The translations under genes were made by a program, and so were the position numbers. Positions 26,693 through 60,047 of a stretch of DNA of 64,000 nucleotides are shown in pieces. The DNA is from Acidobacteriota bacterium (GTDB lineage Bacteria; Acidobacteriota; Thermoanaerobaculia; Multivoradales; UBA5704). Positions within the stretch are counted from its first letter, which is position 1; each line of letters opens with the position of its first letter. The notes under the pieces are model-generated. The model was not told where the DNA came from. It worked only from the letters and a program-made list of their open reading frames with translations, and did not search any database. The stretch covers positions 131,452 to 195,451 of the forward strand of contig JAXDKG010000058.1 of assembly GCA_034667225.1 (NCBI GenBank), read 5' to 3'.

Positions 26693-26710
26693 GACCGTCC
26701 AAAACCCTGA

Positions 26711-26970
26711 TGGGCGACGCAGAAAGTTTTCGGGCGGCACAGAAGATCTTTGAGCGACGCAGAAAGTTTTTGGGCGGCACAGAGAATTTCTGAACGGCAC
26801 AGAAACTTTTTGGGCGGCACAGAAAAATTCTGAGTCGCCCATCGACATTTTGGGCGACGCAGAATTTTTCTGTGCCGCCCAAAATTTTGATGGGCGACGC
26901 TAAGAATCTCTGTGTTGCTCAAAAAGATTTTGGGCGACGCAGAAACTTTCTGTGTCGCCCAAAGGCTCAT
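26711..26970. repeat. 13-unit array with exact 20-bp period (TGGGCGRCRCAGAAANTTTY and its inverted form)
   Basis: Units start at 26711, 26731, ... 26951. Units 1-6 are direct copies. Units 6/7, 8/9, 10/11 and 12/13 form hairpin pairs with 40-bp spacing (for example TGGGCGACGCAGAAactTTCTGTGTCGCCCA, 26931-26961). G+C looks much lower than in the flanks. The array lies between convergent stop codons (26692 and 26967). Confidence 0.85.
26915..26961 (-). terminator. candidate intrinsic terminator of the NRPS/PKS-LLM operon
   Basis: On the minus strand the hairpin UGGGCGACACAGAA-AGU-UUCUGCGUCGCCCA (13-bp stem, one mismatch) starts 6 nt after the LLM stop. It is followed by AAAUCUUUUU. Confidence 0.4.
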
Positions 26971-28091
26971 TGATGGACGTAGCGCTGCCGCAGGCGGTCG
27001 AGGGCGGGCAGGGCTTCCAGGATCGACGGCGCGTCGACCCCGAAATCGATCAGGCAGGCGGCTTCGTCCGCGCCTGCCGCGCGCAGGCGGTCGATCAGGC
27101 GCGCTCCCTTGTCGGGATGGCCGAGGAGGGAGAGAGCCGAAAAGTAGCTCTCGAAGGCCGCGGCGAGCAGGGCGTCGACATCGCTTCCGGCCGGGAAGCC
27201 GTGCTGGTCGAAGTAGGTCTTGAGATACGAGGTCATGGGCACGCGCACCTTTTCCCGCACCGCCTCTTCATCCTCTCCCACGAACGCGTGCACCATCACC
27301 GTCACCTGTCCCGCCTCGGGATCGAGGCCGCGCTCCGCCCGGGCCTGCCGGTAGCGGGCGATCCTCTCCGTCAGCGTGGGAAGGGGCTGGACGATGGTCA
27401 GCACATTGGCGCCGATCTCCCCTGCCCGAGTCCAGGTGGCGGCGTTCGTGGAACAGGTCACCCAGACCGGCACGTCGAGCAGATGGCGAACGGTCTCGAT
27501 TCCGCGGAACATGATCTCCCTGCGGTCGGCATAGGCCTCCGGCCGCAGGGCGAAGTCGGTGGGGTGCCATCCCGTGGCGAAGGAGATGCCGGCGCGGCCG
27601 TTGGAGAGGCGGTCGACCACGGCCCACTCGCCCGCCACGCGCTCCGGGTCATGCAGGGGAAGGACCACGCTGCCGGCCCGGATGCCGATCCGCTCGGTGG
27701 CGGCGGCGAGAGCCGCTCCCAGCAGGGACGGGTTCGGGAAGAGGCCGCCGAAGTCCTGGAAGTGCCGCTCCGGCGTCCAGACCGCCGCGAAGCCCTGGCG
27801 GTCCGCGAAGCGGGCGCTTTCGAGAAGCAGCTCGTAGCTCTCTGCCGGGGTCTTCGCGCCGCCGTCCGAAAAGAAAAAGAGGCTGAAGCGGATGGGCCGG
27901 TCGGAGGGCTCGGGCTCCGGTCCGGAGTCGAACGAGAAGGGCGTCTCCTCCTTCGGCTCCTCACCAGGGACGGCCAGGCCCTCGCTTTTCAGGCGGCGAA
28001 GCAGCAGCTCCCGCTGATCCGGGGTCAGCCCGGCGAGGCGTTTCGTGAGATCAGCCACGGAGGCTCTCCAGCAACTCCAGGGCTCCGGCAA
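26967..28091 (-). CDS. luciferase-like (LLM class) FMN-dependent monooxygenase, NRPS/PKS-associated MupA/Atu3671-like type
   Basis: IRFSLFFFSDGG...FAAVWTPERHF...VVLPLHDPERVAGEWAVVDRLSNGRAGISFATGWHP... are LLM motifs. The N-terminal 55 aa (LTKRLAGLTPDQRELLLRRLKSEG) resemble the N-terminal helices of the NRPS subunits in this operon. Confidence 0.8.
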   Translation of the reverse strand: MPEPWSCWRASVADLTKRLAGLTPDQRELLLRRLKSEGLAVPGEEPKEETPFSFDSGPEPEPSDRPIRFSLFFFSDGGAKTPAESYELLLESARFADRQGFAAVWTPERHFQDFGGLFPNPSLLGAALAAATERIGIRAGSVVLPLHDPERVAGEWAVVDRLSNGRAGISFATGWHPTDFALRPEAYADRREIMFRGIETVRHLLDVPVWVTCSTNAATWTRAGEIGANVLTIVQPLPTLTERIARYRQARAERGLDPEAGQVTVMVHAFVGEDEEAVREKVRVPMTSYLKTYFDQHGFPAGSDVDALLAAAFESYFSALSLLGHPDKGARLIDRLRAAGADEAACLIDFGVDAPSILEALPALDRLRQRYVHQ

Positions 28092-28614
28092 GGTCGGTGC
28101 GGAGAGCGGTTTGATCTACAGAGAGAAGCGGCAGCTCGGGCTGGATGGGTCGCGGCAGGATGCGCACCTCGACCTCGCGGCCTTCACCGTCCGGGACCCG
28201 CACCGCCTCTCCCCGCCAGAGCCGGCGGACGGTCTCCACACCGGCTGCATCCTCAACGGCGATTCCCGCCCGGCCGCCGGAGAGGTTGTCCACCAGCGCC
28301 CACTCTTCGGCTACACGGATCGGGTTGTGGAGAGGCAGGGCGAGGCAGCCCCGCAGAAAAATCTTCCGGGTCGCCACGGCTGCCGCGGAGGCCAGGACCG
28401 CGGGATTGAGGAAGAGGCCGGGGCCTTCGGCCAGCCAGATTGCGGAAAGGCCCAGGTCTTCGGCTCGGCGGACGGTTTCCAGGAAGAGGTGGGCGTCGTC
28501 GCCGCCGGTCAGATATAGGCTCGGGGTCAAGAACGACCTCCGCCTGGGGTTGAAACCCCAGGCTAGAAGGGTATCGCCCCCCTCCGGGGGCGAGTCTCCG
28601 GTTAGCGTCAGCAA
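28051..28614 (-). CDS. truncated LLM-class monooxygenase paralogue (possible pseudogene)
   Basis: FLETVRRAEDLGLSAIWLAEGP...LALPLHNPIRVAEEWALVDNLSGGRAGIAV...RRLWRGEAVRV...ILPRPIQPELP covers only about the N-terminal two-thirds of an LLM barrel. Its 5' end lies inside repeat family A, and its 3' end overlaps the next LLM gene by 41 nt. Confidence 0.5.
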   Translation of the reverse strand: MLTLTGDSPPEGGDTLLAWGFNPRRRSFLTPSLYLTGGDDAHLFLETVRRAEDLGLSAIWLAEGPGLFLNPAVLASAAAVATRKIFLRGCLALPLHNPIRVAEEWALVDNLSGGRAGIAVEDAAGVETVRRLWRGEAVRVPDGEGREVEVRILPRPIQPELPLLSVDQTALRTDLAGALELLESLRG

Positions 28615-28664
28615 GCCTCCGGAGGAGGCTGTACTTTTCTAGCCTGGGGTTTCAACCCCAGGCG
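28541..28664. repeat. two inverted units of palindromic repeat family A (CTAG-CCTGGGGTTTCAACCCCAGG-CG plus arm)
   Basis: 28541-28566 CGCCTGGGGTTGAAACCCCAGGCTAG and 28639-28664 CTAGCCTGGGGTTTCAACCCCAGGCG are exact reverse complements. Each has an arm of about 22 nt related to those at 48781 and 48876. Confidence 0.8.
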
Positions 28665-31600
28665 CTGGTGCCCGGTCGACCGCCTCCCGCAGCGCCCTTG
28701 CGAGCGCCTCCACATGGGGCGGCCTCACCATCCGATGGTGATCGCCGGGCACGGTGACCACCTCTACCGCCGCGGCAAGATCCCCCCACCCCCCCGTTCC
28801 ATCCGGGCCAAGCCGGCCACTGCCCTCAGCTCGGAAGACAGTTACCTTGCCGGCATAGGAGCGCGGCTCCCAGGTGCTCGACGCCCGCAGGTTGGCCTTG
28901 AAGACCTCGACCAGGGCGACGGCCCGGCGCTCGTCGAAGTCGGGAGGCAGGTTCGGCATTCTCTGGAGGACCAGAGCGACCTGGGCGCGGGTGTCGAGCC
29001 CCCGCAGCTCGTCCGCGGTCAGAGGCAACTCCTCGTCCAGGCCGCGGAGCAGCAGCTCGGCCTCGTCGGCCGTCTCTTCCTCCTGCGCCGGGACGTCCAG
29101 GATCGCCACCAGCTCCGCCCGATCCCCCAGCCGGCAGGCCATCTCGTAGGCCACGAGCCCGCCGAAGGACCACCCTCCAAGGTGCACGGGACCGTCCGGA
29201 AGAGCGCTGATGTAAAGATCGGCCATGTCTTCGATGCGATCGAGAGGGGGCCGTTCGCCGTCGAGACCCGGGGCCTGCAGGCCGAACAGCGGTTGGTCGT
29301 CTCCCAGAGCGTGGGCCAGATCGGCATAGCAGAGGACGCCGCCGCCGCCGGGGTGGACCATGAAGAGGGGCGGCCGGGTCCCCTGCGGCTGAATGCGAAC
29401 CAGCGGGGAGGAGGCCTGGGGCAAGACAGGCCGGAGCCAGCCTGCAAGGGTTTCGACCGTCCGTCGTTCGAAGAGGGTGGCGATCGGCATCGGTCGGCCG
29501 AAGCGGGCCTCGATCCGCGAGGCCAGCCGCACGGCGAGCAGAGAATGGCCGCCGAGGGCGAAGAAGTCATCCGTCACTCCGACAGAAACACCGAGGAGAT
29601 CCTCCCAGATCGCCGCCAGCTCGCGCTCCACATCGTCCCGGGGCGGGATGGAGCCGGATTCCCTCCGGACTTCCATCCGGGCCAGAGCCTGCCGGTCCAC
29701 CTTGCCGGTCGCCGTGAGAGGCAGGGCCTCCAACCAGACGTAGGCCGAGGGGATCATGTAGGCGGGCAGCTTCAAGTCCGGATTCACAGGCTCGGATTGC
29801 GGCACCAGAAAGGCCAACAACTGGTCGTTGGCCACCACCACCGCCGCCTCCCGCACCGCGGGATCCCGGAGAAGTGCGGCCTCGATCTCCCCGGGCTCGA
29901 TGCGGTAGCCCCTCAGCTTCACCTGGCGGTCGAGGCGGCCCAGATACTCCAAGTTGCCGTCCGCCAGCCAGCGCACCCGGTCTCCCGTGCGGTAGAGGCG
30001 CTCTCCGCCGTCGTGCGGGATGAAGGCCGCGGCGGTGGTATCGGGCCGGCCGAGATACCCGCGCGCCAAGAGATCGCCCAGCCAGAGCTCGCCGGCCACA
30101 CCGATCGGGACCGGCCGGCCGTGCGGGTCCATCACCCGGACGGTGCGCCCCCCGACCGGGCGGCCGATCGGAACGGAGCCGGAGACCGTGTCCGGGATAT
30201 CCCCAGTCACCTCCCAGACCGTGGGCGTGATCACGGCCTCGGTGGGCCCATAGCCGTTGACCAGCCGCGTCCCGGGCGCCACCTGCCGCCAGAGCCGGGC
30301 CACCTCGGCGGGCATGGCCTCGCCTCCGGCCTCGACGAACCTCAGATGAGACGGGAGCGTCCGGCCCGAGGCCGCCAGCTCCGCCACGAGCTGCCGCCAG
30401 TAGGAGGTCGGCATCTGCGCGACCGTGATGCCCCAGCGCCCGATCCGTTCCGCGAGCTCGGAGGCGCTCCAGAGCTCGCCTCCGCGGGTGAAGAGCGCGG
30501 CGCCGCTCATCAGCGCCATCATCGGATCCAGGGAGGCGTCGAAGCCGTCGGCATAGGCTCCGAGCACCCGGTCGTCCGGACCGAGGCCGCAGCGCCGCGC
30601 CAGACCGGCCAGCTGGCGCGCGTAGGCTCCCATCGACACCCCCACTCCCTTGGGAACGCCGGTCGAGCCCGAGGTGTAGATGACATAGGCCAGGGACTCC
30701 GGATGGACCTCGACCCGGGGGAAGGTCTCCGGCCCGAATCGGCTGACCCGGTCGAGACAGACGGTCCGCAGGCCGCCGGCCGGGAGCTTGCCGAGCAGCG
30801 CCTCGTCGGCCAGCAGCACCGAGGCTCCGCTGTCCTCAAGAAGAAGCTCCAGGCGCTCCGCGGGCAGTTGGAGGTCCAGCGGTACGTACGCGGCCCCGGC
30901 CTTGTGCACGGCGAGGAGGGCGAGCGGCCAGCCTTCCGGCCGGTTCGAGGAGACCGCGACCCGCGTCTCGAGCCCGGCGCCCGCGGCGCGCAGGTCCCGC
31001 GCCAGCCGGTTGGCAAGGCGGTCCAGCTCGGCGTAAGTCATACCCTGGATGGCGGGTGCTCCCGGGGAGCGCGCCGCCCATTCCTCGAACCGGCGGTGGA
31101 GCGGGATCGACCCGGGGAGCGGCTCGGGCGCGCTCCAGTCGAGGATCTGGCGCCGTTCGGCCTCTCCCATCACCGGCAGCTCGGAGAGGCGAAGCTCCGG
31201 ATCGCGGAGAATCCCCGCGACGAGCACCCCGAGCCGCTCCAGCAGGCGCTCCGCGGTGACCGCGTCGAACAGGAGGGCGTCGTACTCCAGCGCCGCCCTC
31301 CCCTCTTCCAGAAAAGTGAGACTGAGGTCGAACTTGGCCGCGCCGGGCGCGAGCGGGACGGGCGACAGGGTGAGCCCGAGCAGCGTCAGCTCCGCGGCGG
31401 GCGCGTTCTGGAGGGCGAGCATTACCTGGAAGACCGGCGTGTGGCGCAGGCTCCGCTCCACGCGCAGCTCCTCCACCAGCCTCTCGAAGGGCAGATCCTG
31501 ATGGGCGTAGGCCTCCAGAGCCGTGGCCCGAGAGGAGGCCAGCATCTCGCGGAAGGACGGATCGCCGTCCAGGCGGCTGCGCAGTGCCAGGGTGTTCACG

Positions 31601-34600
31601 AAGAAGCCGATCAGCCCTTCGAGCCCGGCGTGGGTCCGGTTGGCGATGGGCGTGCCCAAGACGAGGTCGTCCTCCCCGGTCAACCGGTGGAGCAGCGCCT
31701 GGAACGCGGCCAGGAGGACCATGAACAGGGTCGCCCCTTTGCGCCGGCCCAGCTCGCGCAGGGCGGCGGCCGGGAAGTTCGCCTTGGCGACTCCGGCCCG
31801 GCCGGAGCCGGTCGAGCGCGGCCGGTCAAGGGGGAGATCGAGGACCGCCGGAGCGTCCGCCAGCGCTTCGCGCCACCAGGAGATCTGGCCGGCGAGCGCC
31901 TCCCCTTGGAGCCATCCGCGCTGCCAGACCGCGAAGTCGGCGTACTGGACAGGCAGCTCGGGCAGTATTCTCCCTGCGTAGAGCGCGGCCGTCTCCCTCA
32001 CCAGCACGCCGACGGACCAGCCGTCGCTCACCACGTGATGCAGGGAGAAGAGCGCCATCCACTCCCGTTCACCCAGCCGGAGCAGGGAGGCGCGCAGCAG
32101 CGGTCCCTCCCGGAGATCGAAGGGCCGCGACGCCTCTTCCCGGACGAACCGTTCCGCTTCGGCTTCCGTCACATCGATCACCGGCAGCGAGAACGGCCGG
32201 AAAGGGTGGACGCGCTGGCGCGGCTCGCCGTCCGTCTCGGGAAAGGTGGTGCGCAGAATTTCGTGGCGGCGCACGATCTCCTGGAGGACTCTTTCCAGCA
32301 CGGCGGGATCGAGATCGCCGGAGAGACGCAGGGCCGCGGGCATGTTGTAGGCCGGGCTCTTCGGCGCCAGCCGTTGAAGAAACCAGAGCCGCTCCTGGGC
32401 GAAGGAGAGCGGCAGGTCGCCGTCCCGAGGGACCCGCACCAAGGGGGGAGCGACAGGAGCCGATCCGGCGGCCTCCTCGATCCGCGCCGCGAAGCCGGAG
32501 AGGGTCGGGCTTTCGAAGAGGCTGCGCACGGGCAGCTCGACACCGAAGGCGTCCCGCACCCGGGCGAGGACCTGGGTCACCTTGAGTGAATGGCCTCCGA
32601 GCCCGAAGAAGTCGTGGGATGGGCCGATGCGATCGGTCCCGAGCACCTCGCTCCAGATCGCCGCGAGCAGCTCTTCCATTTGGGAAAGAGGGGGAAGCTC
32701 GACCTCCTCCCGGGCCGGCTCGGGCAGCGCCTTGCGGTCGATCTTGCGGTTGGGGGTGAGAGGCAGGGCGTCCAGGAAGACGAACGCGGAAGGGACCATG
32801 TACTCGGGGAGTCGGGCTCGCAGGAAAGTCCGCAAATCGTCCTCAACCGCTGGGACCACGTAGGCGAACAGCCGGCGGTCGTCGCCCTCCCCCCGCGCGA
32901 CGACGACAGTCTCCCGGATGGCGGGATGGCTGGCGAGAGCGGCCTCGACTTCCCCAAGCTCGACGCGGAAGCCCCGGATCTTCACCTGGAGGTCGGCCCG
33001 CCCGAGCGGCTCGACTTCCCCATTTGGCAGATAGCGGCCGAGATCGCCGGTTCGATACAGATCCTGGAACCGTTGCCCGTCCAGATAACCAGCGGCCAGA
33101 TGGGGGCTGCGGACGCAGACTTCGCCAACCTCGCCGATGCCACAAAGCCGGCCCGAGCGGTCGAGAACCAGAAGCTGCACATCCGGCATTCCGCGGCCCA
33201 GGGGATAGCGCTCCTCATCCTCCCTCACCTCGTGGAAACCCACGGCGCGCTGGGTTTCGGTCGAGCCGTAGAGATTGACGACTTTGACATCCGGAGCGAG
33301 GGCGCGCAGGCGCTCCACATCGCGGCGGGTCAGCACGTCTCCCACGAAGAACGCCCGGCGGAGGGCGGGCATCGGACTGGCCGGCGGGCTGGTGAGCAGC
33401 CGACCCATGGCGGGGGTCAGATGAGCGACGGTGACACCCATGCGGGCCATCCAGGCGGAAAGCCAGCCGGGCTCGCCCATGCGGTCGGGGTCGGGGATCA
33501 CGACAGAGGCGCCGAGCCAGAGTGGAGTGAAGACGTCCCGGTGCAGTGGATCGTGAGCCAGGCCGGACAGGAGGCTGAAGCGGTCGTCGGGGCCGAGTTC
33601 GAAGGCCTCGCTCATCCAGGGGTAGAAGTGGGTCAGGGAGCGGTGGAGGCCGAGGACGCCTTTGGGGATGCCGGTCGAGCCGGAGGTGAAGGCGATGTAG
33701 GCCAAAGCATCCGGACCCCCTCCCCTACCCTCCCCCGCTGCGCGGGAGAGGGAGTCCAGAATGGCCTTGTTGCGCTGCTCGGGGTAGGCGGGGTCTAGGA
33801 TTACGAAGGCGGCTCCGGCCTTCATGACTCCGAGGATCTTGGGGACCAAAGGCGCGCTGTGGTGGCCCTGGATAGCCACGACCTCTCCTGCCCGCACCCC
33901 CTCCGCATTCCTCTCCATCTGCTCGGCAAGCTGGGCGTAGGTGAGCTCTCCACCCTCCCAGATCACGGCATTACGGTGGGGCATCTCCTGAGCGTGCTTT
34001 GTCACGGCATCGGAAACCGAGCCCGGCCAGCTCGCATCCAGCGGAGCCTCGGGATCGGGTAGCGCTTTGCGGGCGGCCTCGGTCACCAGCGAGAACGATC
34101 CGATCGGGGTTTCAGGATCGGCGACGGCCTGCTCGAGGACGAGGTGGTACTGGGCGAGCGCCTCCTCCATCCGTGGCGCATCGAAGAGGCCGGCGTTGTA
34201 GATCAGGTCGAGATGGACGGCCCCCCTGTCCTCCATCAGATACAAGGTCATGTCGAACTTGGCCTGCGGCTCGGACGCGCCGAGCCCTTCGATCGTCAGG
34301 CCCGGGAGGCGTACCTCGGTCGAGGGGAAGTTCAGCAGGTTGAAGAAGACCTGGAAGAGCGGCGTGCGCGACAGGTCGCGCTGCGGCTCGATCTCGGCCA
34401 GGAGCTTCTCGAAGGGGAGGTCCTGGTGGGCAAAGGCCCCGACCGCGACCTCGCGCACCCGGGCCAACAACTCCCGGAACGTGGGATCGCCCGACAGGTC
34501 GGTGCGCAGGACCAAGTGGTTCAGGAAAATCCCGATCAGCCCCTCGACCTCGCGCCGGGTGCGGCCCGCGATGGGCGAGCCCACCGGCACATCCTCCTGG

Positions 34601-35435
34601 CCGCTCCATCGAGAGAGAAGAAGCTGGAACCCGGCGAGCAGCACCATGAAGAGGCTCGCCCCCTCGCCGAGCGACCTCAGACGATCAACGAGCGCAGCCG
34701 GCAGGATGCGGACGGCTCGCCCTCCTTGGAAAGTCTGCACCGCCGGACGCGGACGGTCGAAGGGCAGGTCGAGCGAAGGCGGAGAGCCCGCGAGCCGCTC
34801 CCGCCACCAGGCAAGCTCCTCTTCGAGAGCCTCGCCCGTCAGCCTTTCTCTCTGCCACGCCGCGTAATCGGCATACTGGATTGAAAGCTCCGGGAGCGCT
34901 TCCCCGGCGTAGAAAGCCGTCAGCTCGCGCACCAGGATGCCGAGGGACCAGCCGTCGGAAACGATGTGGTGGAGGTCGAGGGAGAGCACATGGTCCTCGT
35001 CCCCCAGGCGCAGCAGCCTCACCCGAAGGAGCGGTCCCTCTTCCAGCCGGATCGGCTCGCGCCGGATCTCCTCGACCACTGGCAGGAGCACGGGAGCGGG
35101 CGGCGCGATCCGCTGGACAGGCCGGCCGCCCTCTTCGTGGAAGGTCGCCCTCAGCACCTCATGCCGGCGAACCACCTCCGTGAGGGCCCGCTCCAGGGCC
35201 GGCACATCCAACTTTCCTTTCAACCGGAGCGAGGAGGGGATGACGTAGGCCGGATTGTCCGGATCGAGCCGGTCGAGGAACCAGAGACGCTCCTGGGCAA
35301 AGGAGAGCGGATGGGCGGATGGGTCCTCCCGGCGCGGGATCGTCTGCCCGCCTTCCATTCCCTCCTCGCGGCGGCGTTCGCGCAGCAGCTCCAACCGCTC
35401 GCGGGAGGCCCGGAAGAATTTCCCAGTCGCCACGG

Positions 35436-35439
<4 letters not shown>
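28639..35439 (-). CDS. NRPS, two modules plus thioesterase: C-A-T-C-A-T-TE (modules 6 and 7)
   Basis: C: LSFAQERLWFLDRL, HHIVSDGWS. A: LAYIAFTSGSTGIPKG, LAHDPLHRD, NLYGSTETQRAV, GRADLQVKIRGFRVELGEVE. T: FFGLGGHSL. C: HHVVSDGWS. A: LAYVIYTSGSTGVPKG, GFDASLDP, NGYGPTE. T: FFALGGHSL. TE: GGWSFGG, PGDHHRM. Confidence 0.95.
33716..33754. repeat. GC-rich palindromic repeat family B2, in-frame copy inside A domain (module 6)
   Basis: CCCCCTCCCCTACCCTCCCCCGCTGCGCGGGAGAGGGAG matches 44338-44376 at 38 of 39 nt, although the flanks are unrelated. It is translated as ...[11 protein letters not shown]... immediately N-terminal to core A3 (LAYIAFTSGSTG). Confidence 0.7.
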
Positions 35440-41590
<6,151 letters not shown>

Positions 41591-41594
<4 letters not shown>

Positions 41595-53800: not shown

Positions 53801-55055
53801 GGAGAGGGGGATAGGGGGTGAGGGGCGCCTCTTCCAGCACCACATGAGCATTCGTCCCCCCGATCCCGAACGAGCTCACTGCCGCCCGCCGCGGCCCCTC
53901 CGACTTCCACTCCGTCAACCGGTCCACCACCTGGAACGGTCCGAAGTCGATCTCCGGGCTGGGCTGCTTGAAATGCAGCGTCGGCGGGATCTCCCGGTGC
54001 TTGAGCGCGAGCACGGTCTTGATCAGGCCGGCCACGCCCGCGGCGCAGTCGAGATGGCCGATGTTCGTCTTGACCGAGCCGAGCAGGCAGCTCTCGGCCC
54101 CCTCGAAGGCCCGGCGCAGGGCTGCGACCTCGATGGGATCGCCGAGCCGCGTGCCCGTGCCGTGCGCCTCGACATAGGAGACCGTGGCGGGATCCACCTC
54201 GGCCAGCGCGAGCGCTTCCTGGATCACCCCGGCCTGGCCCTCGGTGAGCGGCGCCGTATAGCCGGCCTTGCCGCCGCCGTCGTTGTTGAGCGCCCAGCCG
54301 CGGATCACGGCGCGGACCTCGTCGCCGTCCGTCAGCGCATCCGAGAGCCGCTTCAGGACCACCACGCCCACGCCGCTGCCCGGCACCGTGCCGCGGGCCT
54401 CGGCGTCAAAGGCGCGGCAGTGGCCGTCGGGAGAGAGGATGCCTTCCTCCACGTGGATATAGCCGGAGCGTTGCGGCAGACGCAGGGTCACGCCGCCTGC
54501 CAGGGCCGCATCGCAGTCGCCATTCATCAGGCTCTGGCATGCAAGGCAGACGGCGACCAGCGAGGTCGAGCAGGCGGTCTGCACGGTCAGGCCGGGGCCG
54601 CGAAGGTCGAGCTTGTAGGCCACCCGGGTGGCGAGGAAATCCTTGTCATTGGCCACCGCGGCCTGATAGGCGTCGAGCCTCTCGCGGTTGGGGTAGACAT
54701 GATCCAGCAGGTAGAAGGACATGCCGGTGCCGGCGAACACGCCGATGCGGCCCGGCGGGCGGGCGGGATCGATGCCGGCGTCTTCCAAAGCCTTCCAGGA
54801 CTCCTCCAGGAAGAGCCGTTGCTGCGGGTCCATCAGCTCGGCTTCGCGCGGGCTGTAGCCGAAGAAACGGGCGTCGAAACGCTCGATATCGTCGAGCGCT
54901 CCGGCCCGGGGCACGTATCCGGGCCGCGCCTCGTCGGGGAACGTGGAGATTGATTCGATGCCCTCGCGCAGGCTGCGCCAGTAGGCGCCGACGTTCTCGG
55001 CGCCCGGGAATCGGCCGCTCATGCCGATGATCGCGATGTAATCCGTCATACCCAA
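50859..55055 (-). CDS. type I PKS module: KS-AT(malonyl)-KR-ACP
   Basis: KS: TACSTSLVAV, EAHGTGT, NIGHLDCAAG. AT: GHSVGE and HAFH (malonyl-type). KR: YVITGGLGRFG ... RPKVGG ... LGAYAAADAAL. ACP: LLGGNSLAG. TTG start at 55055. Confidence 0.95.
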   Translation of the reverse strand: MGMTDYIAIIGMSGRFPGAENVGAYWRSLREGIESISTFPDEARPGYVPRAGALDDIERFDARFFGYSPREAELMDPQQRLFLEESWKALEDAGIDPARPPGRIGVFAGTGMSFYLLDHVYPNRERLDAYQAAVANDKDFLATRVAYKLDLRGPGLTVQTACSTSLVAVCLACQSLMNGDCDAALAGGVTLRLPQRSGYIHVEEGILSPDGHCRAFDAEARGTVPGSGVGVVVLKRLSDALTDGDEVRAVIRGWALNNDGGGKAGYTAPLTEGQAGVIQEALALAEVDPATVSYVEAHGTGTRLGDPIEVAALRRAFEGAESCLLGSVKTNIGHLDCAAGVAGLIKTVLALKHREIPPTLHFKQPSPEIDFGPFQVVDRLTEWKSEGPRRAAVSSFGIGGTNAHVVLEEAPLTPYPPLPSPSLPRERGGRSSAAVPNLNGTLAEGSPSPGRAGVRWERGSGGEGQHLLVVSAKTPSALEAVTANLVRHLEAHPDLDLRDVAFTLQTGRQPLEVRRAAVVRKDLSSVQWLTVQPDPGFVPVAFLFPGQGAQHERMAAELYGRWPVFRREMDRCAAILGMDLFTGDVRQTELAQPALFAVEYSLARLWMDWGVQPEALLGHSVGEFVAACLAGVFSLEDALALVAERGRLVQATPPGSMLSVPLGEEELAEWLDGELSLAAVNGPGLCTVSGPFDAIERLEQKLPASRRLHTSHAFHSALVEPAVAPFRERVARVERRPPQIPFLSNVTGTWITAEEATDPGYWARHLRQPVRFAPAVAALLAEPRRLLLEVGPGTTLTTLVRRGGEARDRIVPSLPHLQDAETDTQAILGAAGRLWLAGVPLVAAEPGRKVALPTYPFEGERYWIEPSAPKPSTLGKRQDPADWLYLPTWKRTLPAGALDTAAEEGDVWVISDGHEIAKGLRGILREAVSEEDVEATVAGLLEDSAPKRVVFMGHAPGLLSLSRELGRRVHTPVQLVVVTRGLYEVTGGEATGEQGALAGLAKVIPQEYPNLRCRLIDVSGEAEALAAELETDGPPVIALRGRHRWEQVFEPFRLARKEGLRPDGHYVITGGLGRFGQMVDGARITQLDLKDGIDVADRTAVTRALREAVARHGRIDGVLHAAGEPSDDYRTLSELGAADLQRHLRPKVGGAIALREALRELGEEPAFCVATTSLAAVLGGVSLGAYAAADAALDALLGAWGPPWVSVNWEVWQAIGGMGILGQQQNELMLTPEELADTLERVLSLRGQPRLAVATGDLNRRLQQWTDVMHTGPAAVAHARPESGVPYRAPGNPSEAKIAEIWQELLGVDRVGVDDDYFLLGGNSLAGLQILSKMRAEFDVELPLKAFFEARTVSAMAEEIGREREKAAFEKKRLEEILAEIEALSLDEVKAHLAEEGT
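53664..53827. repeat. two inverted family B1 repeat units forming a ~164-bp composite inverted repeat in the KS-AT linker
   Basis: 53664-53720 (CCCCTCACCCCCTGACCCCCTCTCCCATCGCACACCC...GGGAGAGGGGGA) and its inverted copy at 53770-53827. They are translated as PYPPLPSPSLPRERGG...GSPSPGRAGVRWERGSGGEGQ, right after the KS end GGTNAHVVLEEAP. Confidence 0.75.
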
Positions 55056-55061
55056 AACCTT

Positions 55062-58000
55062 TCAATTCCGCCGGGCCCGCCGCCGGTCCATGGCGGCCCG
55101 CCGGGAGGCGGCCCGGTCGTGAATGTCCTGCGCGGCTTCCGTCCCCCGCTGCTCCGGCTCCCCCGCCAGCCGCGCCGCCAGGGAGCTGATGGTGGTGTTA
55201 CTGAACAGCTCAGCCAGTGGGATCGGCCGCCCGAGCACCTCGCACAGCCGGGCGTGAGCCCGCGCCATCAGCAGCGAGTGCCCGCCCAGCTCGAAGAAGT
55301 TGCGGTCGATGCCGACGCTCTCCACCCCCAGGACCTCGCGCCAGACCGCGGCGATGGTCCTCTCCATTTCGGTGCGAGGCAGAGCCGGAAGGGAGCCCGT
55401 ATTGGCTTCAAGGCTGGCCACTGTCGGCGGCATTGGAAGCGCTTTCAAGTCCACCTTGCCCACCGTGGTCAGCGGCAGCTCGGGGAGCGGCACGAAGGCC
55501 GACGGGATCATGGCTGCCGGAAGACGATCGGTCAGGAAGGCGCGCAGGTCGCCCACCTCTCCTTCGAGCACGACATAAGCCACCAGCACGGGCTCCCCGG
55601 CGGCGCCCGGACGGGCCACTACCACCGCTTCGCGCACCTGTGGATGAGCAGCGAGGGCGGCTTCGATCTCCGCCGGCTCGATGCGCACTCCGCGCAGCTT
55701 GACCTGGGAGTCGATCCTCCCCAGGTACTCCAAGAGGCCGTCCGGCAACAAGCGGACAAGATCGCCGGTGCGATAGAGGCGATGTCCATCCCCCGCGAAA
55801 TCCGGGACCCAGCGTTCGGCCGTGAGGTCCGGGCGGCCGAGATAGCCGCGGGCTGGCGGCACGCCCCCGGCGCACAACTCTCCTGGGACGCCAATCGGCA
55901 GCGGCTCTCTCGACCAGGGGCCGAGCACACTGATGCGGGTATTGATGATGGGCTTGCCGATCGACGGCACCTCGTCGTCCGGCCGAAAGCGGTGGGACGA
56001 GACGTAGACCGTTGCCTCGGCAGGGCCGTAGCAGTTGACCAGGCGCACGCGCCCCGACCAGCGGGCGGCGAGCGCGGCCGGCACGGCCTCGCCGCCCAGG
56101 ATCAGGGTCTCCAGAGAGGGAATCTCCTCCTCGGGCAGAAAGCGGAGGGCCGAGGGCGTCAGCAAGGCCCAAGTGATCTCCCGCTCGCGCATCTCCGCGG
56201 CAAGGCGCGGGCCGGAGAGCCGCGCCTCCTCGCTCGCCAGGCAGAGCGCCGCCCCCGACGTCCAGGCGCCGAAGACCTCCAGCACCGACGCGTCGAAGAC
56301 CGGCGCGGCCAATTGGAGCATGCGCGAGCCGGGGCCGAGCCGGAACTCGCGCCGGGCGTGATGGACCATGTTCGTGAGCGGCCGGTGCGGCACCAACACG
56401 GCCTTGGGCTGACCGGTGGAGCCCGAGGTGTACAGGGCATAGGCGAGGTGGTCCGGAGTGACGGCCACGGCGGGCCGCTCGGGGCTCCAGGAACCGAGGG
56501 CGGCCATGCGCTCGGCCGTCACCACCACTTGCGCGCCGCTCTGGGCGAGGAGCAGATCGATCCGCTCTTGCGGGTGGGATGGATCGACCGGAACGTAGAA
56601 GCCGCCGGCCTTGAGAACGGCGAGGGCTCCGGTCCAGAGATCCGAGCGCTCCAGGAGGAGCGCCACGGGGGTCTCCGGGCCAACTCCGGAGGCCAGGATC
56701 AGCCGGGCGAGCCGGTTCGCCCGTGCCTCCAGCTCACGGTAGGTGGAGACCGAGCCGTCGGCTCCGACCAGGGCCGGAGCGTCGGGGGTCCGGTCCGCCC
56801 AATCCTCGAACAGCTCGTGCACGCAACGCTCGGGCACCGTCTCGGCAGGACCCTCGCCCCAGCTCAGGAGCTGGGCGCGCTCGGCTTCGTCGAGGACAGG
56901 CAGGTCCGAGATGCGCTGCAAGGGGTCGGCACCGCGCAGCAAGGTGAGGAACCGGCCGGCCATGCGCTGGATCGTCGACTCGTCAAAGAGATCCGAGCTG
57001 AAATCGAAGACGGCATCAATGGTATCGCCGGCATGGCCGGTCTCCACGGCCAGCAGCGTCAGGTCGAACGGGGTGGCCCGCCGCGGCAGCTCGACGGGTT
57101 CCAGGGTGAGGCCGCCGATGCGGAGAGGCGCGCCGGCTCGCCCGAGCACGAACGGCGCTGCCGCGGCGCCCCTTTCGAGCCGGTGCGGCTGCTCCAGCGC
57201 GAAAAGGACCTGGACCAGCGGATGGCGCGAAGGGTCCCGAGCTGGATCGAGGCGCTCGACCAGGACGGGGAACGGGAGGTCCTGGCGCTCCAGGGCGCCT
57301 GCGAGAGAGCGCCGGGTGCGGGCCAGCAGCTCCGAAAAGGTCGGGTCGCCGGAGAGGTTGGCGCGCACTGGAAGGAGGTTCACGAAGTGCCCCGCCACCT
57401 CCTCCAGCCCGGGCCGCGTGCGGCCCGCCGCGGGAGCGCCGACCAGCATATCCTCGCGACCGGTATGGCGATGGAGCAGGGCTTCGAACGCCGCGAGGAG
57501 AACTGTGTAGAGCGTCGCCCCCGAAGAGGCGGCCAGAGACCGCACCTGCCCGGACAGCTCCGGGCCAAGGGAGAACGGGTGCGACCCGCCGCGGTGGGTC
57601 GGAACTGGCGGGCGGGGGCGGTCGGCTGGGAGGTCGAGCACCGTGGAGGCGCCGGCGAGGGCGGTGCGCCACTCGGCCCACAGGCGCTCGCCTTCGGGGC
57701 CGGCCAGCATTTCGCGCTGCCAGCGGGCCCAGGCGGCGTAAGCTAGGGGTTGAAACCCCAGGCTAGACGGGTGTCGCTCCTCCAGAGCGGCCAACCCCTC
57801 CAGAATCAACCCCAGCGACCAGAAGTCCGCCGCAATGTGGTGCACCGCCAGCAGCAACACCCCGTTGGAGAAAAGCCGCGCCCGCATCACCGGCCCGCGC
57901 TCCAAGTCGAACGGGCGCCAAGCCTCCTCCTCGATGCTCCCGGAATCGACTACCGCAAAATCAATCGCACCATCACCAATCCGCTGCACGGGCTCGCCAT

Positions 58001-60047
58001 CCACCAAGGGGTAGGTGGTGCGCAGAACCGCATGGCGCTCCGCCAAGCGCGACAAGGCCTCGATGTCGAGGTCACCTGAGACCCGCGCGGCGAGCGCGAG
58101 GTTGTAAACCGGGCTTTCGGGCGCCATCCGCCAGGCGAGCCAGAGAGAGCGCTGGTTGTAGGAGAGAGGATGGTCGGTCCCCTCGACCGCGGGGAGCTCG
58201 AACGGCTGCGCCACCGTCACCTGCTCGGCCAGCCGGCGAGGGCTGATCCCTTCGAGGAGCGCGGTCAGGGAGACACTCACCCCGGCGCCGCTCTCCAGGC
58301 GGTTTTTCAGTTCCAAGGCCAGCAGCGAGTCGAGTGGCAAGGGCGCCTCGGGGTCGAGGCTCTCCGGATCGACCCGAAGCAGGCGGGCAGTCTGGTCGAG
58401 GACGAAATCCTGGAGAGTAGCCAGCCCCGGGAGGGGCTGTACCCGTCTAGCCTGGGGTTTCAACCCCAGGCGGGTGAGCGTCCCCGCCAAAAACTCCTCC
58501 CGGCAAGCCCCCCGCCGCACCTTGCCGCTGGAGGTCTTGGGCAGCGTCCCCGCGCGGATCGGCATCACCTCATGCGGCGAAACCTCGTGCTCTCGCAGCA
58601 CCGCGGCCCGGATGGCCTCTGCTGCCTCTCCGGCCTCGGCCTCGCGGCGGCGCTCCACCTCATGCACGACGACCAGCCGCTCCTCGCCGTCCACCTCGAC
58701 CGAAAACGCCGCCCCGCCTCCGGAGCGCAGTGCCAGATGGCTCTCTTCGGCCGTTCGCTCTATGTCATGGGGATAGAGGTTGCGCCCGCGGACCACGATC
58801 AGATCCTTCAGACGGCCGGTGACGAACAGCTCGCCGTGCTCGTCGAGCCGGCCGAGGTCGCCCGTACGGAGGACACCCCCGAAACTCTCCCCTTCCCAAT
58901 ACCCGTCCGCAACGCTCGGGCCGAATACCTGGATCTCCCCTTCCTCGCCCGCCGGAAGCTCATGCCCCTCGGCATCCACGACCGTGATCCGCTCCCCCGG
59001 CCATGCCCGGCCGCAGCTCACCAAGTTGCCGACCACCTTCGGCGCGGCATCCGGGTCCCCACCGCTGACGAACAGCGTGGCCTCGGCCAGTCCGTAGCAC
59101 GGATAGAACGCCTCGCGCCGGAAGCCGCAGGGCGCGAACGCTTCGGCAAAGGCATCCAGAGTCGCAGCCCGTACCGGCTCGGCGCCGTTGAAGGCCACGC
59201 GCCAGCTCGACAGGTCGAGCCCCTCGCGCTCGGCCGGCGGGATCTTGCGCACGCAGAGCGAATAGGCGAAGTCCGGCCCGCCGCTGGTGGTCCCCTGGAA
59301 GCGGTCGATGGCTTCCAGCCACCGCCGCGGCCTCTGAAGAAAGGAGAGGGGGGACATCAGCACGCACGTGGCCCCGCACCAGAGCGGCTGGAGCACGTTC
59401 CCGATCAACCCCATGTCGTGGTAGAGCGGCAGCCACCCGACCACGACCGACTCCTCCGACTGGCCGAAGGCATGCTGGATGGCCCGCTCGTTGGCAATCA
59501 GGTTGCCGTGAGTGACGCGGACGCCCTTGGGGGTCGAGGTGGAGCCTGAGGTGTACTGGAGGAAGGCCAGGCTGTCAGGACCGACCGCCGGCGGGCGCCA
59601 GTCTTCCGGCACCAGACCCTCGAGGGCGACGGCCCCCTCCACCTCCCGCTCCACGCGGGGAAGCAGCGAGGGCGTGGTCAACGCGAGCCGCGGCTTCGCA
59701 TCCTCCAAGAGACTGCGCAGCCGTCCCGTCCCCCGTCCCGGAGACGGCGGATAGGCCGGCACGGCCACCGCGCCCGCGTACAAGCATCCGAGAAACGCCG
59801 TGACGAAGTCGAGCCCCGGGGGGAACAGCAGGAGCACCCGCTCGCCCGCAGCACCTCGCCGCTGGAGGTCCGCAGCGATGGCGCGAGCCTTCTGGTCGAC
59901 CTCCGCATAGGTGAGCCGCTCGGTAGGAGTATCTCCATCGCGGCCATCCCCCAGGAACGTGAAGGCGCACCTCTCCCCCAGGCGGCCTGCCCGCTCGCGG
60001 ACGACGTCGATGAAGCTCTCCTGGGCCAATACGGTCTCCTTCCCCAT
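55062..60047 (-). CDS. loading + module 1: fatty acyl-AMP ligase (FAAL)-ACP-C-A-T
   Basis: FAAL: FLQYTSGSTSTPKGVRVTHGNLIAN. ACP: LDSLLALELKNRLE. C: LSYNQRSLWLAW, HHIAADFWS. A: [31 protein letters not shown]: FFELGGHSL. Confidence 0.95.
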   Translation of the reverse strand: MGKETVLAQESFIDVVRERAGRLGERCAFTFLGDGRDGDTPTERLTYAEVDQKARAIAADLQRRGAAGERVLLLFPPGLDFVTAFLGCLYAGAVAVPAYPPSPGRGTGRLRSLLEDAKPRLALTTPSLLPRVEREVEGAVALEGLVPEDWRPPAVGPDSLAFLQYTSGSTSTPKGVRVTHGNLIANERAIQHAFGQSEESVVVGWLPLYHDMGLIGNVLQPLWCGATCVLMSPLSFLQRPRRWLEAIDRFQGTTSGGPDFAYSLCVRKIPPAEREGLDLSSWRVAFNGAEPVRAATLDAFAEAFAPCGFRREAFYPCYGLAEATLFVSGGDPDAAPKVVGNLVSCGRAWPGERITVVDAEGHELPAGEEGEIQVFGPSVADGYWEGESFGGVLRTGDLGRLDEHGELFVTGRLKDLIVVRGRNLYPHDIERTAEESHLALRSGGGAAFSVEVDGEERLVVVHEVERRREAEAGEAAEAIRAAVLREHEVSPHEVMPIRAGTLPKTSSGKVRRGACREEFLAGTLTRLGLKPQARRVQPLPGLATLQDFVLDQTARLLRVDPESLDPEAPLPLDSLLALELKNRLESGAGVSVSLTALLEGISPRRLAEQVTVAQPFELPAVEGTDHPLSYNQRSLWLAWRMAPESPVYNLALAARVSGDLDIEALSRLAERHAVLRTTYPLVDGEPVQRIGDGAIDFAVVDSGSIEEEAWRPFDLERGPVMRARLFSNGVLLLAVHHIAADFWSLGLILEGLAALEERHPSSLGFQPLAYAAWARWQREMLAGPEGERLWAEWRTALAGASTVLDLPADRPRPPVPTHRGGSHPFSLGPELSGQVRSLAASSGATLYTVLLAAFEALLHRHTGREDMLVGAPAAGRTRPGLEEVAGHFVNLLPVRANLSGDPTFSELLARTRRSLAGALERQDLPFPVLVERLDPARDPSRHPLVQVLFALEQPHRLERGAAAAPFVLGRAGAPLRIGGLTLEPVELPRRATPFDLTLLAVETGHAGDTIDAVFDFSSDLFDESTIQRMAGRFLTLLRGADPLQRISDLPVLDEAERAQLLSWGEGPAETVPERCVHELFEDWADRTPDAPALVGADGSVSTYRELEARANRLARLILASGVGPETPVALLLERSDLWTGALAVLKAGGFYVPVDPSHPQERIDLLLAQSGAQVVVTAERMAALGSWSPERPAVAVTPDHLAYALYTSGSTGQPKAVLVPHRPLTNMVHHARREFRLGPGSRMLQLAAPVFDASVLEVFGAWTSGAALCLASEEARLSGPRLAAEMREREITWALLTPSALRFLPEEEIPSLETLILGGEAVPAALAARWSGRVRLVNCYGPAEATVYVSSHRFRPDDEVPSIGKPIINTRISVLGPWSREPLPIGVPGELCAGGVPPARGYLGRPDLTAERWVPDFAGDGHRLYRTGDLVRLLPDGLLEYLGRIDSQVKLRGVRIEPAEIEAALAAHPQVREAVVVARPGAAGEPVLVAYVVLEGEVGDLRAFLTDRLPAAMIPSAFVPLPELPLTTVGKVDLKALPMPPTVASLEANTGSLPALPRTEMERTIAAVWREVLGVESVGIDRNFFELGGHSLLMARAHARLCEVLGRPIPLAELFSNTTISSLAARLAGEPEQRGTEAAQDIHDRAASRRAAMDRRRARRN
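57742..57783. repeat. family A repeat unit (half element), in frame inside the module-1 C domain
   Basis: GCTAGGGGTTGAAACCCCAGGCTAGACGGGTGTCGCTCCTCC. It is translated as [14 protein letters not shown], about 20 aa after HHIAADFWS and merging into the YAAWARWQ motif. Confidence 0.8.
58425..58472. repeat. family A repeat unit (half element), in frame in the FAAL-ACP linker
   Basis: Identical over 48 of 48 nt to 48781-48828. It is translated as [16 protein letters not shown], between the end of the FAAL domain and the ACP. Confidence 0.85.

Follow-up and report, generated by a model that had tools for sequence, protein, structure and literature searches.

An intact operon of eight genes, probably maintained by selection, was found in an uncultured Thermoanaerobaculia (Acidobacteriota) bacterium; its product is predicted to be a peptide capped by a fatty acid and containing a single oxidised polyketide unit. 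We favour, with some reserve, an N-acyl hybrid peptide that carries as its second unit a γ-amino-β-keto acid, α-hydroxylated or α-oxidised, and not a β-hydroxy acid of the statine type. The operon spans about 33 kb on the minus strand of the window (the whole 64,000 nt stretch that was analysed, on a JGI metagenome contig whose host is an uncultured soil-type acidobacterium). ORF and Pfam analysis revealed six translationally coupled synthetase genes at 28639–60047 (g1 to g6), followed at the 3′ end of the operon by two luciferase-like (LLM) genes, llmA and llmB.

The order of the domains, the intact ORFs and the active-site motifs were read directly. All reading frames were uninterrupted and every ORF was intact; recomputation returned the ORF coordinates of the preliminary description, the Pfam scan gave identical domain strings for all six synthetase genes, and both LLM genes placed downstream were recovered. 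The domain order is FAAL-ACP-C-A-T (g1), KS-AT-KR-like-ACP (g2), C-A-T-E (g3), C-A-T-E (g4), C-A-T-C-A-T (g5) and C-A-T-C-A-T-TE (g6), located as follows.

55062–60047, minus strand: g1, 1661 aa, FAAL-ACP-C1-A1-T1 (Pfam)
58473–59996, minus strand: FAAL of g1 (Pfam, NCBIfam)
58224–58403, minus strand: ACP of g1 (Pfam)
56865–58172, minus strand: C1 of g1, motif HHIAADF (Pfam)
55455–56810, minus strand: A1 of g1, code DALLIGCVY (Pfam)
55167–55358, minus strand: T1 of g1 (Pfam)
50859–55055, minus strand: g2, 1398 aa from TTG 55055 or 1396 aa from ATG 55049 (Pfam, JGI start)
53784–55040, minus strand: KS of g2, Cys162/His298/His333 (Pfam and sequence)
52557–53432, minus strand: malonyl-AT of g2, GHSVG/HAFH (Pfam and sequence)
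51276–52508, minus strand: degenerate KR-like domain of g2 (Pfam, alignments, AF2 model)
50979–51167, minus strand: ACP of g2 (Pfam)
46141–50862, minus strand: g3, 1573 aa, C2-A2-T2-E2, A2 code DAMIVGVVC (Pfam)
41591–46144, minus strand: g4, 1517 aa, C3 (DCL type)-A3-T3-E3, A3 code DVLAVGGIF (Pfam)
35436–41594, minus strand: g5, 2052 aa, C4 (DCL type)-A4-T4-C5-A5-T5 (Pfam)
28639–35439, minus strand: g6, 2266 aa, C6-A6-T6-C7-A7-T7-TE (Pfam)
32743–34002, minus strand: Lys2-type A6 of g6 (AHDP motif, code DPRHFVLRA)
28687–29373, minus strand: TE of g6, GWSFG and GDHH (Pfam and motif)
28535–28669, no strand assigned: inverted pair of a REP-like palindromic element, core GCCTGGGGTT-GA-AACCCCAGGC, in the g6–llmA spacer
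28051–28530, minus strand: llmA, about 159 aa, reduced LLM paralogue (family models and alignment)
26967–28058, minus strand: llmB, 363 aa, FMN-dependent LLM of the MupA/Atu3671 family (TIGR04020)

Start and stop codons overlap by 4 nt at four junctions (ATGA 35436–39, GTGA 41591–94, ATGA 46141–44 and ATGA 50859–62), as a second reading of the sequence confirmed. The single 6 nt gap described earlier, between g1 and g2, holds if g2 starts at TTG 55055 and becomes 12 nt with the start called by JGI, ATG 55049. g6 takes its final codons and its stop from the REP-like pair at 28535–28669, and REP-like palindromic elements are also inserted in-frame, in linkers or loops, inside g1, g2, g3 and g5. 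An all-frame motif search and a check of neighbouring genes agreed that MbtH, PPTase and exporter genes are not adjacent: no MbtH or Sfp-type motif occurred in any frame of the window, which also lacked genes for a flavin reductase, a PPTase and MbtH, and no transporter gene lay next to the operon.

Comparison with orthologues gave dN/dS values of 0.13–0.26 for g1 to g6, 0.24 for llmB and 0.43 for llmA, and the same architecture, including the pair of a short and a long LLM, was retained in orthologous clusters at 80–93 % identity. The in-frame deletions from the KR-like domain and llmB, the truncation of llmA and the repeats within four of the synthetase genes could be taken as signs of a pseudogenising, non-producing locus. 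Such decay is very unlikely given some 33 kb of unbroken reading frames, the constraint on the synthetase genes and on the KR-like region (dN/dS 0.12–0.14), the conserved architecture and the in-frame placement of every repeat in linkers or loops. We predict, almost without reservation, a real and functional assembly line.

The N-terminal domain of g1 is a FAAL: NCBIfam FAAL models scored 340–385 bits (PRK05850 385 bits, FadD32 366 bits) compared with about 170 bits for acyl-CoA ligase models (PRK06187 171 bits), and g1 carries the DIP2/FAAL-type C-terminal subdomain PF23024 with an ACP directly downstream. PDB matches of g1 were FAAL structures and PvdL of the pyoverdine pathway, whose N-terminal FAAL-T-C-A-T has a loading architecture identical to that of g1 and matches it across its full length at about 38 % identity; PvdL-type Pseudomonas proteins were also its commonest named relatives. 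By the logic of PvdL, the acyl group would be a transient handle, cleaved off once export is complete, and the peptide would serve as a siderophore or chromophore precursor. We consider this highly improbable here: all modules after the first differ from those of PvdL, the operon adds a PKS module and LLMs, and no pyoverdine maturation gene was found, with no PvdQ-type acylase, TonB receptor, hydroxamate/catechol or periplasmic maturation gene within the 64 kb.

The core motifs of modular NRPSs were found across g1 and g3 to g6: the catalytic His of HHxxxDG in the C domains, A3–A10 with Lys517 in the A domains, GGxS in the T domains, HHxxxD with FNYLG in the E domains, and GxSxG with a His in the TE. 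Pfam order and the malonyl-AT signature bore out a colinear, FAAL-primed line with seven A domains and one malonate after residue 1, and motifs for E domains at modules 2 and 3 and for a terminal TE were present. Both E domains have HHxxxDxxS and FNYLG and follow a GGDSI-type T domain. Each was said to precede a DCL-type C domain starting with LSP(M/L)QEGMLF; these start motifs were found, and the two domains concerned, C3 and C4, clustered together (48 % mutual identity, <30 % to the other C domains). Motif variants occur in C1 (HHIAADF) and C5 (HHAVSDE). In C2 of g3, PHLITDA replaces HHxxxDG, with the first His lost and the second kept, and there is an insertion of about 30 aa; both features recur in an orthologue (L089).

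Pocket codes were read from a MAFFT alignment to a GrsA fragment. The codes previously read by hand for A1 (DALLIGCVY), A2 (DAMIVGVVC), A3 (DVLAVGGIF), A4 (DARSTGHVN) and A5 (DFWNIGMVH, a Thr code at module 5) were reproduced. For A7, DADAEGGIT had to be corrected to DA(-/D)QEGGIT, position 278 being Q. The pocket-code strings did not occur in the literature searched. The code of A6 is non-canonical (DPRHFVLRA) and its core A4 reads AHDP instead of FDxS (sequence SGLAHDPLHRDVF); it scored 449.5 bits with TIGR03443 against 321.7 bits with the generic A-domain model TIGR01733, falling under the full-length TIGR03443 cut-off because the A domain alone is present. A6 is accordingly classed as a Lys2-like adenylation domain, of the α-aminoadipate-reductase type. 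The seven A domains support the earlier prediction of a peptide of seven amino acids in number, but with a Lys2-type A domain in module 6 a non-standard building block or linkage may be among them.

The module encoded by g2 is a cis-AT type I PKS module, with the KS triad, the malonyl-AT signature and an ACP motif LGGNSL. Its KR-like domain had been listed as a KR, but the alignments show it to be degenerate. The Pfam KR match (71 bits) begins only at profile position 60, and about 30–50 residues of the Rossmann fold, one β-α unit of the NADPH-binding fold, are absent after GGLGRFG (judged against the PksJ KR 4j1q, 6ulw, L071, L007 and P0041/P0050/P0080). In the AF2 model of this region, β1 is followed by a 4-residue helix, a strand and then directly αC, with moderate confidence (mean pLDDT 61). 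The YAAAN motif is changed to YAAAD. Among the top 120 homologues of g2, 41 formed an xAAAD group and 51 others had the canonical Y..AAN. Throughout the xAAAD group the Asn position is Asp, whilst the Tyr position is Tyr in nine, Phe in 24, His in three, Leu in three and Met in two (non-Tyr in 32 of 41); orthologues at about 90 % identity have Phe or His in place of Tyr. The complete Rossmann fold and Lys-Ser-Tyr(-Asn) set of a competent PKS ketoreductase is thus lacking, and the domain is likely to be catalytically inactive. With the fold incomplete and the catalytic Tyr unconserved, β-keto reduction is unlikely and there is no β-hydroxy (statine-like) unit to predict. The KR-like region is as constrained as the KS and AT, and must therefore have some function, of whatever kind.

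These data bear on a rival reading, in which g2 is a canonical KS-AT-KR-ACP module yielding a γ-amino-β-hydroxy (statine-like) unit and both LLMs are generic late tailoring enzymes. The Pfam match itself agrees with it, as does a fold search that grouped the domain with PKS KRs, the overall KR fold being retained (TM 0.5–0.59). In the window's own g2 the catalytic positions are still occupied by Tyr, Ser and Lys and the Gly-rich motif GGLGRFG is present, so that residual reductase activity is possible on sequence alone; the LLM genes form the 3′ end of the operon and are separated from g2 by about 22 kb. We nevertheless think a statine-like unit unlikely, in view of the late start of the match, the β-α unit deleted from the cofactor-binding fold, the substitutions at Tyr and Asn, and the relatives in which an LLM is fused to, or adjoins, such a PKS module.

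The LLM genes themselves point the same way. llmB scored 375.4 bits with TIGR04020, above the curated cut-off of 244.45, and its best PDB match was the PuwE oxygenase domain 6ket (291 bits); llmA scored 116 bits and so falls outside the family. All eight LLM-fused PKSs (KS-AT-KR*-ACP-LLM) belonged to the xAAAD group and none to the 51 canonical homologues. A cassette of FAAL-ACP-C-A-T, PKS and LLM genes joined by 4 nt overlaps occurs in two clusters (L090 and L091), another (L088) has a PKS with Tyr changed to Phe that is followed by an LLM gene, and KS-AT-ACP-LLM proteins without any KR match also occur. The LLM genes had been noted only as following the synthetase genes; this recurrence of the same LLM family within or directly after such modules makes the LLM probably the partner of the g2 PKS module and not an incidental, generic tailoring gene. 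We lean towards the intermediate bound to g2 as its substrate. It may instead act on another carrier, for example at the last module, as MtaG-type MOx domains do. llmB has lost a hairpin of about 26 aa that more distant family members retain, and llmA lacks the ERHF region and most of the barrel while retaining the hairpin and N-terminal strands, so the oxygenase could be impaired; the counterpart of llmA in one orthologous cluster (L086) is a conserved ORF of 218 aa. [quoted passage not shown] MupA has been demonstrated to α-hydroxylate ACP thioesters in trans (PMC10952193), and the Ox domain of PuwE, which sits in a non-reducing PKS module, has been assigned C-2 hydroxylation (PMC4219810). 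These precedents, with the gene fusions and adjacency, predict that LlmB would α-hydroxylate a carrier-bound thioester with reduced FMN.

From the domain order and motifs we infer the following route. The FAAL would adenylate a fatty acid and load the adjacent ACP, C1 would N-acylate residue 1, and the KS-AT would add one malonate unit. The KR-like domain, kept as a scaffold, would leave the β-keto group unreduced, and LlmB, a PuwE/MupA-type flavin monooxygenase possibly assisted by its reduced paralogue LlmA, would oxygenate the malonate-derived α-carbon whilst the chain is on the g2 ACP. The atypical C2 would then hand the chain to residues 2 and 3, each of which would be epimerised to D, followed by residue 4, Thr5, residue 6 (via the Lys2-type A domain) and residue 7, and the TE would release the product.

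The unit could also be one of net one-carbon extension, in which LLM oxidation of the malonate unit and subsequent chain shortening give an α-keto (or α-hydroxy) β-amino acid, that is, an α-ketoamide warhead. Such a unit has been proposed for keramamide/calyxamide-type modules and for CalD/MndB. The operon shares its combination of PKS and Ox with the keramamide and calyxamide modules, for which an unusual C1 extension has been described (PMC12858407); LLM-catalysed chain shortening has been described (PMC8739492), and the downstream C2 is atypical (PHLITDA and insertion). The keramamide/calyxamide modules of Entotheonella (PMC12858407) comprise KS, AT, KR and Ox at an NRPS-to-PKS step and modify the carbon added after an amino acid, as here, a likeness drawn from published descriptions of the ker and cth modules. 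Their lines have a formyl start, heterocyclisation domains and producers from another phylum. As it is not established how the shortening would proceed chemically and no decarboxylase or hydrolase for it was identified in the window, we regard this extension as distinctly improbable, and retain the α-oxygenated β-keto unit.

Orthologues at 68–95 % identity came only from uncultured Thermoanaerobaculia (Acidobacteriota), with more than 20 for g2 at 68–92 % in named Thermoanaerobaculia MAGs. Protein searches returned no characterised relative, in keeping with the earlier failure to recognise the product family: the best matches in named or cultured organisms were at or below about 45–47 % identity (g1, g2), and the top LLM matches included no cultured or named producer. 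A broader suggestion, offered as doubtful, is that the operon belongs to an uncharacterised, Acidobacteriota-centred lipopeptide family built on the FAAL-ACP-C-A-T, KS-AT-KR remnant-ACP and PuwE/MupA-type LLM cassette. Such a cassette may convert an N-acyl amino acid to an electrophilic α-oxygenated β-keto, tricarbonyl or α-ketoamide unit; the dead KR may persist as a docking site for the oxygenase, and LlmA and LlmB may form a LuxA/LuxB-like pair of non-catalytic and catalytic partners, LlmA providing the hairpin that LlmB has lost.

We know of no natural product tied to Thermoanaerobaculia, and this conserved, selection-maintained lipopeptide line is a concrete target for heterologous expression. 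For genome mining, an xAAAD-type KR next to a MupA/PuwE-type LLM should be annotated as non-reducing and its module as 'extend plus α-oxidise', a rule that alters the structures predicted automatically for dozens of metagenomic clusters. Should the unit prove to be an α-oxygenated β-keto or α-ketoamide group, the products could be protease-directed electrophiles. Public metagenomes contain an abundance of orphan NRPS/PKS clusters of uncultured Acidobacteriota; the kind is common, and beyond this rule and the expression target the cluster is one more of them.

Of the known systems, the myxoglucamide (mxg) clusters of Cystobacterineae (PMC13638107) share with the operon a fatty-acid-initiated NRPS/PKS line, a γ-amino acid made from an amino acid and malonate, atypical C domains, an E domain followed by a DCL-type C domain and a TE; in the FAAL-primed myxoglucamides an FMN monooxygenase α-oxidises the γ-amino acid to the α-hydroxy or α-keto form, as proposed here. 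In contrast, mxg has an active KR and DH, an α-KG dioxygenase domain on its loading NRPS, the C-LLM fusion MxgE, glycosyltransferases and a P450, none of which appeared in Pfam scans of the operon and its flanks, and a much shorter peptide product; the operon is not an mxg-type cluster. llmB falls by its cut-off score in TIGR04020, the family of MupA of mupirocin biosynthesis (PMC10952193, PMC8739492); the α-hydroxylation by MupA, in trans, of an ACP-bound thioester is the role proposed for llmB, although MupA serves a KS0-ACP bimodule of a trans-AT PKS and llmB would serve a cis-AT module within an NRPS line. In the puwainaphycin/minutissamide pathway (6ket, PMC4219810), the Ox of PuwE forms a fusion with an aminotransferase and has a fatty acyl chain as its substrate, giving a 3-amino-2-hydroxy acid, whereas the operon has no aminotransferase, would act on an N-acyl-aminoacyl-malonate chain, keeps a KR remnant and encodes its hairpin-less LLM as a separate gene. 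Both are nonetheless FAAL-primed lipopeptide lines in which a PKS module that elongates without β-keto reduction is combined with an LLM-type flavin monooxygenase.

This cluster is genuine and conserved, an orphan lipopeptide line belonging to uncultured Acidobacteriota. The outline given in the preliminary description was right, and its treatment of the PKS/LLM step and of module 6 required correction. Pfam analysis of whole proteins and of module-sized pieces returned the domain order proposed there for the six coupled synthetase genes: FAAL-ACP-C-A-T (g1, with a fatty acyl-AMP ligase domain), KS-AT-KR-ACP (g2), C-A-T-E (g3 and g4), C-A-T-C-A-T (g5) and C-A-T-C-A-T-TE (g6). Motif and alignment checks revealed an active Cys-His-His triad in the KS of g2 and a malonyl-type AT (GHSVG/HAFH), and the TE of g6 possessed GWSFG and GDHH. 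Both E domains carried HHxxxDxxS and FNYLG, and the T domains preceding them were of the GGDSI type. The C domains following the E domains formed their own cluster (48 % mutual identity, <30 % to the other C domains), as would be expected of DCL domains. Gene order is thus also assembly order, on account of the E-domain motifs and of this clustering, with a member of the DCL cluster next in line to each E domain. C2, the acceptor of the PKS-bound chain, possessed PHLITDA and an insertion of ~30 aa, both of which were kept in an orthologue.

Exact look-ups of window proteins matched the window to the 230-kb contig Ga0467042_0000032 of JGI metagenome 3300044739, whose gene calls were in agreement with ours for g1, g3, g4, g5 and g6; no exact-protein match was found for g4 or for g2 with either start option. 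GC3 frame analysis indicated that the six long minus-strand ORFs and llmB, one of two luciferase-like monooxygenase (LLM) genes at the 3' end of the operon, were coding. The LLM/metallo-β-lactamase end was assembled independently in two Logan runs. The four start/stop overlaps were read directly as ATGA, GTGA, ATGA and ATGA. The 6-nt gap reported before g2 would become a 12-nt gap, ATG at 55049, with GAAAGG upstream, being a likelier start than TTG at 55055.

None of the relatives revealed by a GTDB scan with g1 exceeded 53 % identity, none of the 80 loci contained a syntenic cluster, and close orthologues turned up only in the protein database. More than 20 orthologues of g2 (68–92 % identity) were present in a large protein collection, including one on an 8.38-Mb contig (L089) and several with the label 'MAG TPA: Thermoanaerobaculia bacterium'. 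L089 contained orthologues of g1–g5 (88–93 % identical) with the same order and overlaps, adjoining the same ABC-F gene (98.8 % identical), whilst g5, g6, a short LLM gene and a long LLM gene were found at ~80 % identity in a second cluster (L086/L087). Against the orthologues, dN/dS was 0.13–0.26 in the synthetase genes, 0.24 in llmB and 0.43 in llmA; these values speak against pseudogenisation, which the preliminary description had named as a ground for refutation.

The operon is flanked upstream by a PIN/antitoxin pair and an ABC-F ATPase, and downstream by a subclass B3 metallo-β-lactamase, a NUDIX-MBL fusion, an aconitase and a FadL-type porin:

60955–62889, minus strand: ABC-F ATPase upstream of g1, scoring above the threshold set for the 'ribosomal protection-like ABC-F' model, best match a YbiT-type model
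60281–60496 and 60666–60938, plus strand: PIN toxin and 71-aa antitoxin-like ORF, between the ABC-F gene and g1
26675–26974: AT-richer tandem array (20/40-nt period, units like TTTTGGGCGGCACAGAAA), filling the gap between the convergent metallo-β-lactamase gene and llmB
25823–26692, plus strand: subclass B3 metallo-β-lactamase (NCBIfam model, 327 bits, cut-off 240)
24053–25579, plus strand: unusual NUDIX hydrolase-MBL-fold fusion of 508 aa with a C-terminal winged helix

The position of the PIN/antitoxin pair is occupied in L089 by another toxin-antitoxin pair (Rv0078B/AbiEii). In L086 the orthologous cluster is followed, a few genes further downstream, by a copy of the metallo-β-lactamase (84 % identical); this could be no more than synteny, or the gene could be linked to the cluster. 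The tandem array has an overall 113-nt inverted symmetry (26729–26841/26851–26963) and may be a bidirectional terminator or a binding-site array. Rfam and tRNA scans detected no RNA features in the window. As stated previously, no MbtH or Sfp-type motif was present in any frame and no transporter adjoined the operon.

Two families of palindromic repeats were located in the cluster. The first (~45–55 nt, REP/MITE-like) has the core hairpin GCCTGGGGTT-GA-AACCCCAGGC, and all six of its copies in the window fall within the cluster; the second is G-rich (GGGAGAGGGGGATAGGGGGTGAGGGG):

58425–58473: GCCTGGGGTT-GA-AACCCCAGGC element, in-frame, g1 FAAL-ACP linker
57746–57783: GCCTGGGGTT-GA-AACCCCAGGC element, in-frame, g1 C1
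48781–48834 and 48850–48892: inverted pair of GCCTGGGGTT-GA-AACCCCAGGC elements, in-frame, g3 A2
28535–28588 and 28624–28669: inverted pair of GCCTGGGGTT-GA-AACCCCAGGC elements, g6-llmA spacer
53663–53720/53769–53826: inverted pair of GGGAGAGGGGGATAGGGGGTGAGGGG palindromes, encoding a 41-aa stretch inserted into the KS-AT linker of g2
39836–39880: single GGGAGAGGGGGATAGGGGGTGAGGGG arm, g5 A4 loop

The four in-frame copies of the first element (g1 and g3) encode a 12-residue peptide in one orientation and a 15-residue peptide in the other, and the spacer pair supplies the last codons and the stop codon of g6. Orthologous clusters lacked the element and had other insertions at the same sites; likewise, the 41-aa insertion was absent from the 92 %-identical g2 orthologue in L089. 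Metagenomes contain the first element in high copy number (at least 120 stretches), frequently at stretch ends and mostly outside long open frames. It is similar to the in-frame Rickettsia palindromic elements.

Pocket codes were derived by aligning the seven A domains (A1–A7) to a GrsA fragment. Five of the six codes read earlier were reproduced, and that of A7, wrong by one residue at position 278, reads DA(-/D)QEGGIT. The A5 code was again DFWNIGMVH, the Thr code. No match to the seven code strings, or to the Lys2 code (DPRHFVMRA), was found in the searchable literature, so that substrate calls besides Thr are guesses. The codes of A2, A3 and A6 were identical in the orthologues and those of A1 and A7 differed, for which reason the cluster family probably makes congeners. 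In module 6, A6 is Lys2-like and non-canonical: AHDP replaces FDxS, the code is DPRHFVLRA, and the Lys2 α-aminoadipate-reductase model TIGR03443 scored 449 bits against 322 bits for the generic A-domain model. The same A6 occurred in the 80 %-identical cluster in L086 and in one GTDB Thermoanaerobaculia locus. A Gly-type assignment was rejected, the 383-bit PDB match to LgrA being the sum of two ordinary A-domain matches of ~168 bits and AHDP being absent from LgrA. By analogy with Lys2, A6 could load an acidic amino acid via its side-chain carboxyl.

The KR of g2 is not an ordinary one. Its Pfam match starts at profile position 60, and ~30–50 residues are absent straight after GGLGRFG in comparison with the solved KRs PksJ 4j1q and 6ulw, with g2-like PKSs of the GTDB loci and with database relatives. 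The absent segment corresponds to αA-β2-αB of the cofactor-binding fold. In an AF2 model of moderate quality (mean pLDDT 61, core 70–90), which supports a missing β-α unit, β1 is followed by a four-residue helix and a single strand leading straight into αC; Foldseek grouped the domain with PKS KRs (TM 0.5–0.59). Among the 120 best g2 homologues, 41 had xAAAD in place of YAAAN, with Phe (24), Tyr (9), His (3), Leu (3) or Met (2) at the catalytic Tyr position, and 51 others had the canonical Y..AAN. Orthologues resembling the window copy (~90 % identity) showed a Tyr/Phe swap at this position, and dN/dS of the region (0.12–0.14) indicated constraint equal to that on KS and AT. The simplest reading of these sequences is a conserved non-reductive scaffold, although the window copy has kept Tyr and might retain residual reductase activity.

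The LLM genes do not appear to be incidental followers of the operon, members of the same family being fused to or adjoining xAAAD PKS modules in relatives. All eight g2 homologues with an LLM domain were ordered KS-AT-KR-ACP-LLM and had the xAAAD form of KR, whereas none of the 51 canonical homologues had an LLM domain (Fisher p ~0.001, descriptive only since the sequences are related). Two further xAAAD relatives belonged to operons of the form FAAL-ACP-C-A-T, PKS, LLM with 4-nt overlaps, an LLM gene follows a PKS with Tyr → Phe in the related locus L088, and KS-AT-ACP-LLM proteins without any KR occur as well. The product of llmB was over the curated cut-off of TIGR04020 (MupA/Atu3671 FMN-dependent LLM; 375 vs 244 bits), and its best solved relative by far was the PuwE oxygenase domain (6ket, 291 bits; next match 67 bits).

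The LLM family was also found inside NRPS adenylation domains of relatives, as C-A-[LLM]-A-T (L088 512–5263; P0312, P0314, P0316 and P0325), indicating that it serves PKS as well as NRPS carriers in these uncultured lineages; the arrangement is reminiscent of MtaG-type MOx modules. A hairpin of ~26 aa (LWRGE...PRPxQP) was lost from LlmB and its orthologues of ≥84 % identity, partly lost at 79–84 % identity and kept in more distant members. LlmA still has this hairpin along with the N-terminal strands; the ERHF region is missing, as is most of the barrel. The llmA ORF is conserved (218 aa in L086). A single frameshifted gene was rejected as the origin of llmA and llmB, since the two match one and the same N-terminal part of the LLM and are kept as two separate ORFs in L086. 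It may be speculated, by analogy, that LlmA and LlmB form a catalytic/non-catalytic pair like LuxA/LuxB.

The PKS module of PuwE carries out elongation but no reduction, and C-2 hydroxylation has been assigned to the Ox domain of PuwE (PMC4219810). For MupA, α-hydroxylation of ACP-bound thioesters in trans has been demonstrated (PMC10952193), and in several PKSs both α-hydroxylation and chain shortening have been attributed to TIGR04020 LLMs (PMC8739492). In the FAAL-primed myxoglucamides an FMN monooxygenase α-oxidises a malonate-extended γ-amino acid (PMC13638107), and keramamide/calyxamide modules with an Ox domain carry out C1 extension (PMC12858407). From this literature and from the fusion or adjacency of LLMs to PKS modules, we infer that LlmB would oxygenate C-2 of the unreduced β-ketoacyl chain while it is held on the g2 ACP. 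The cluster belongs to a well-known type of system, and for its twist at the level of this module the puwainaphycin, mupirocin and myxoglucamide pathways offer precedents.
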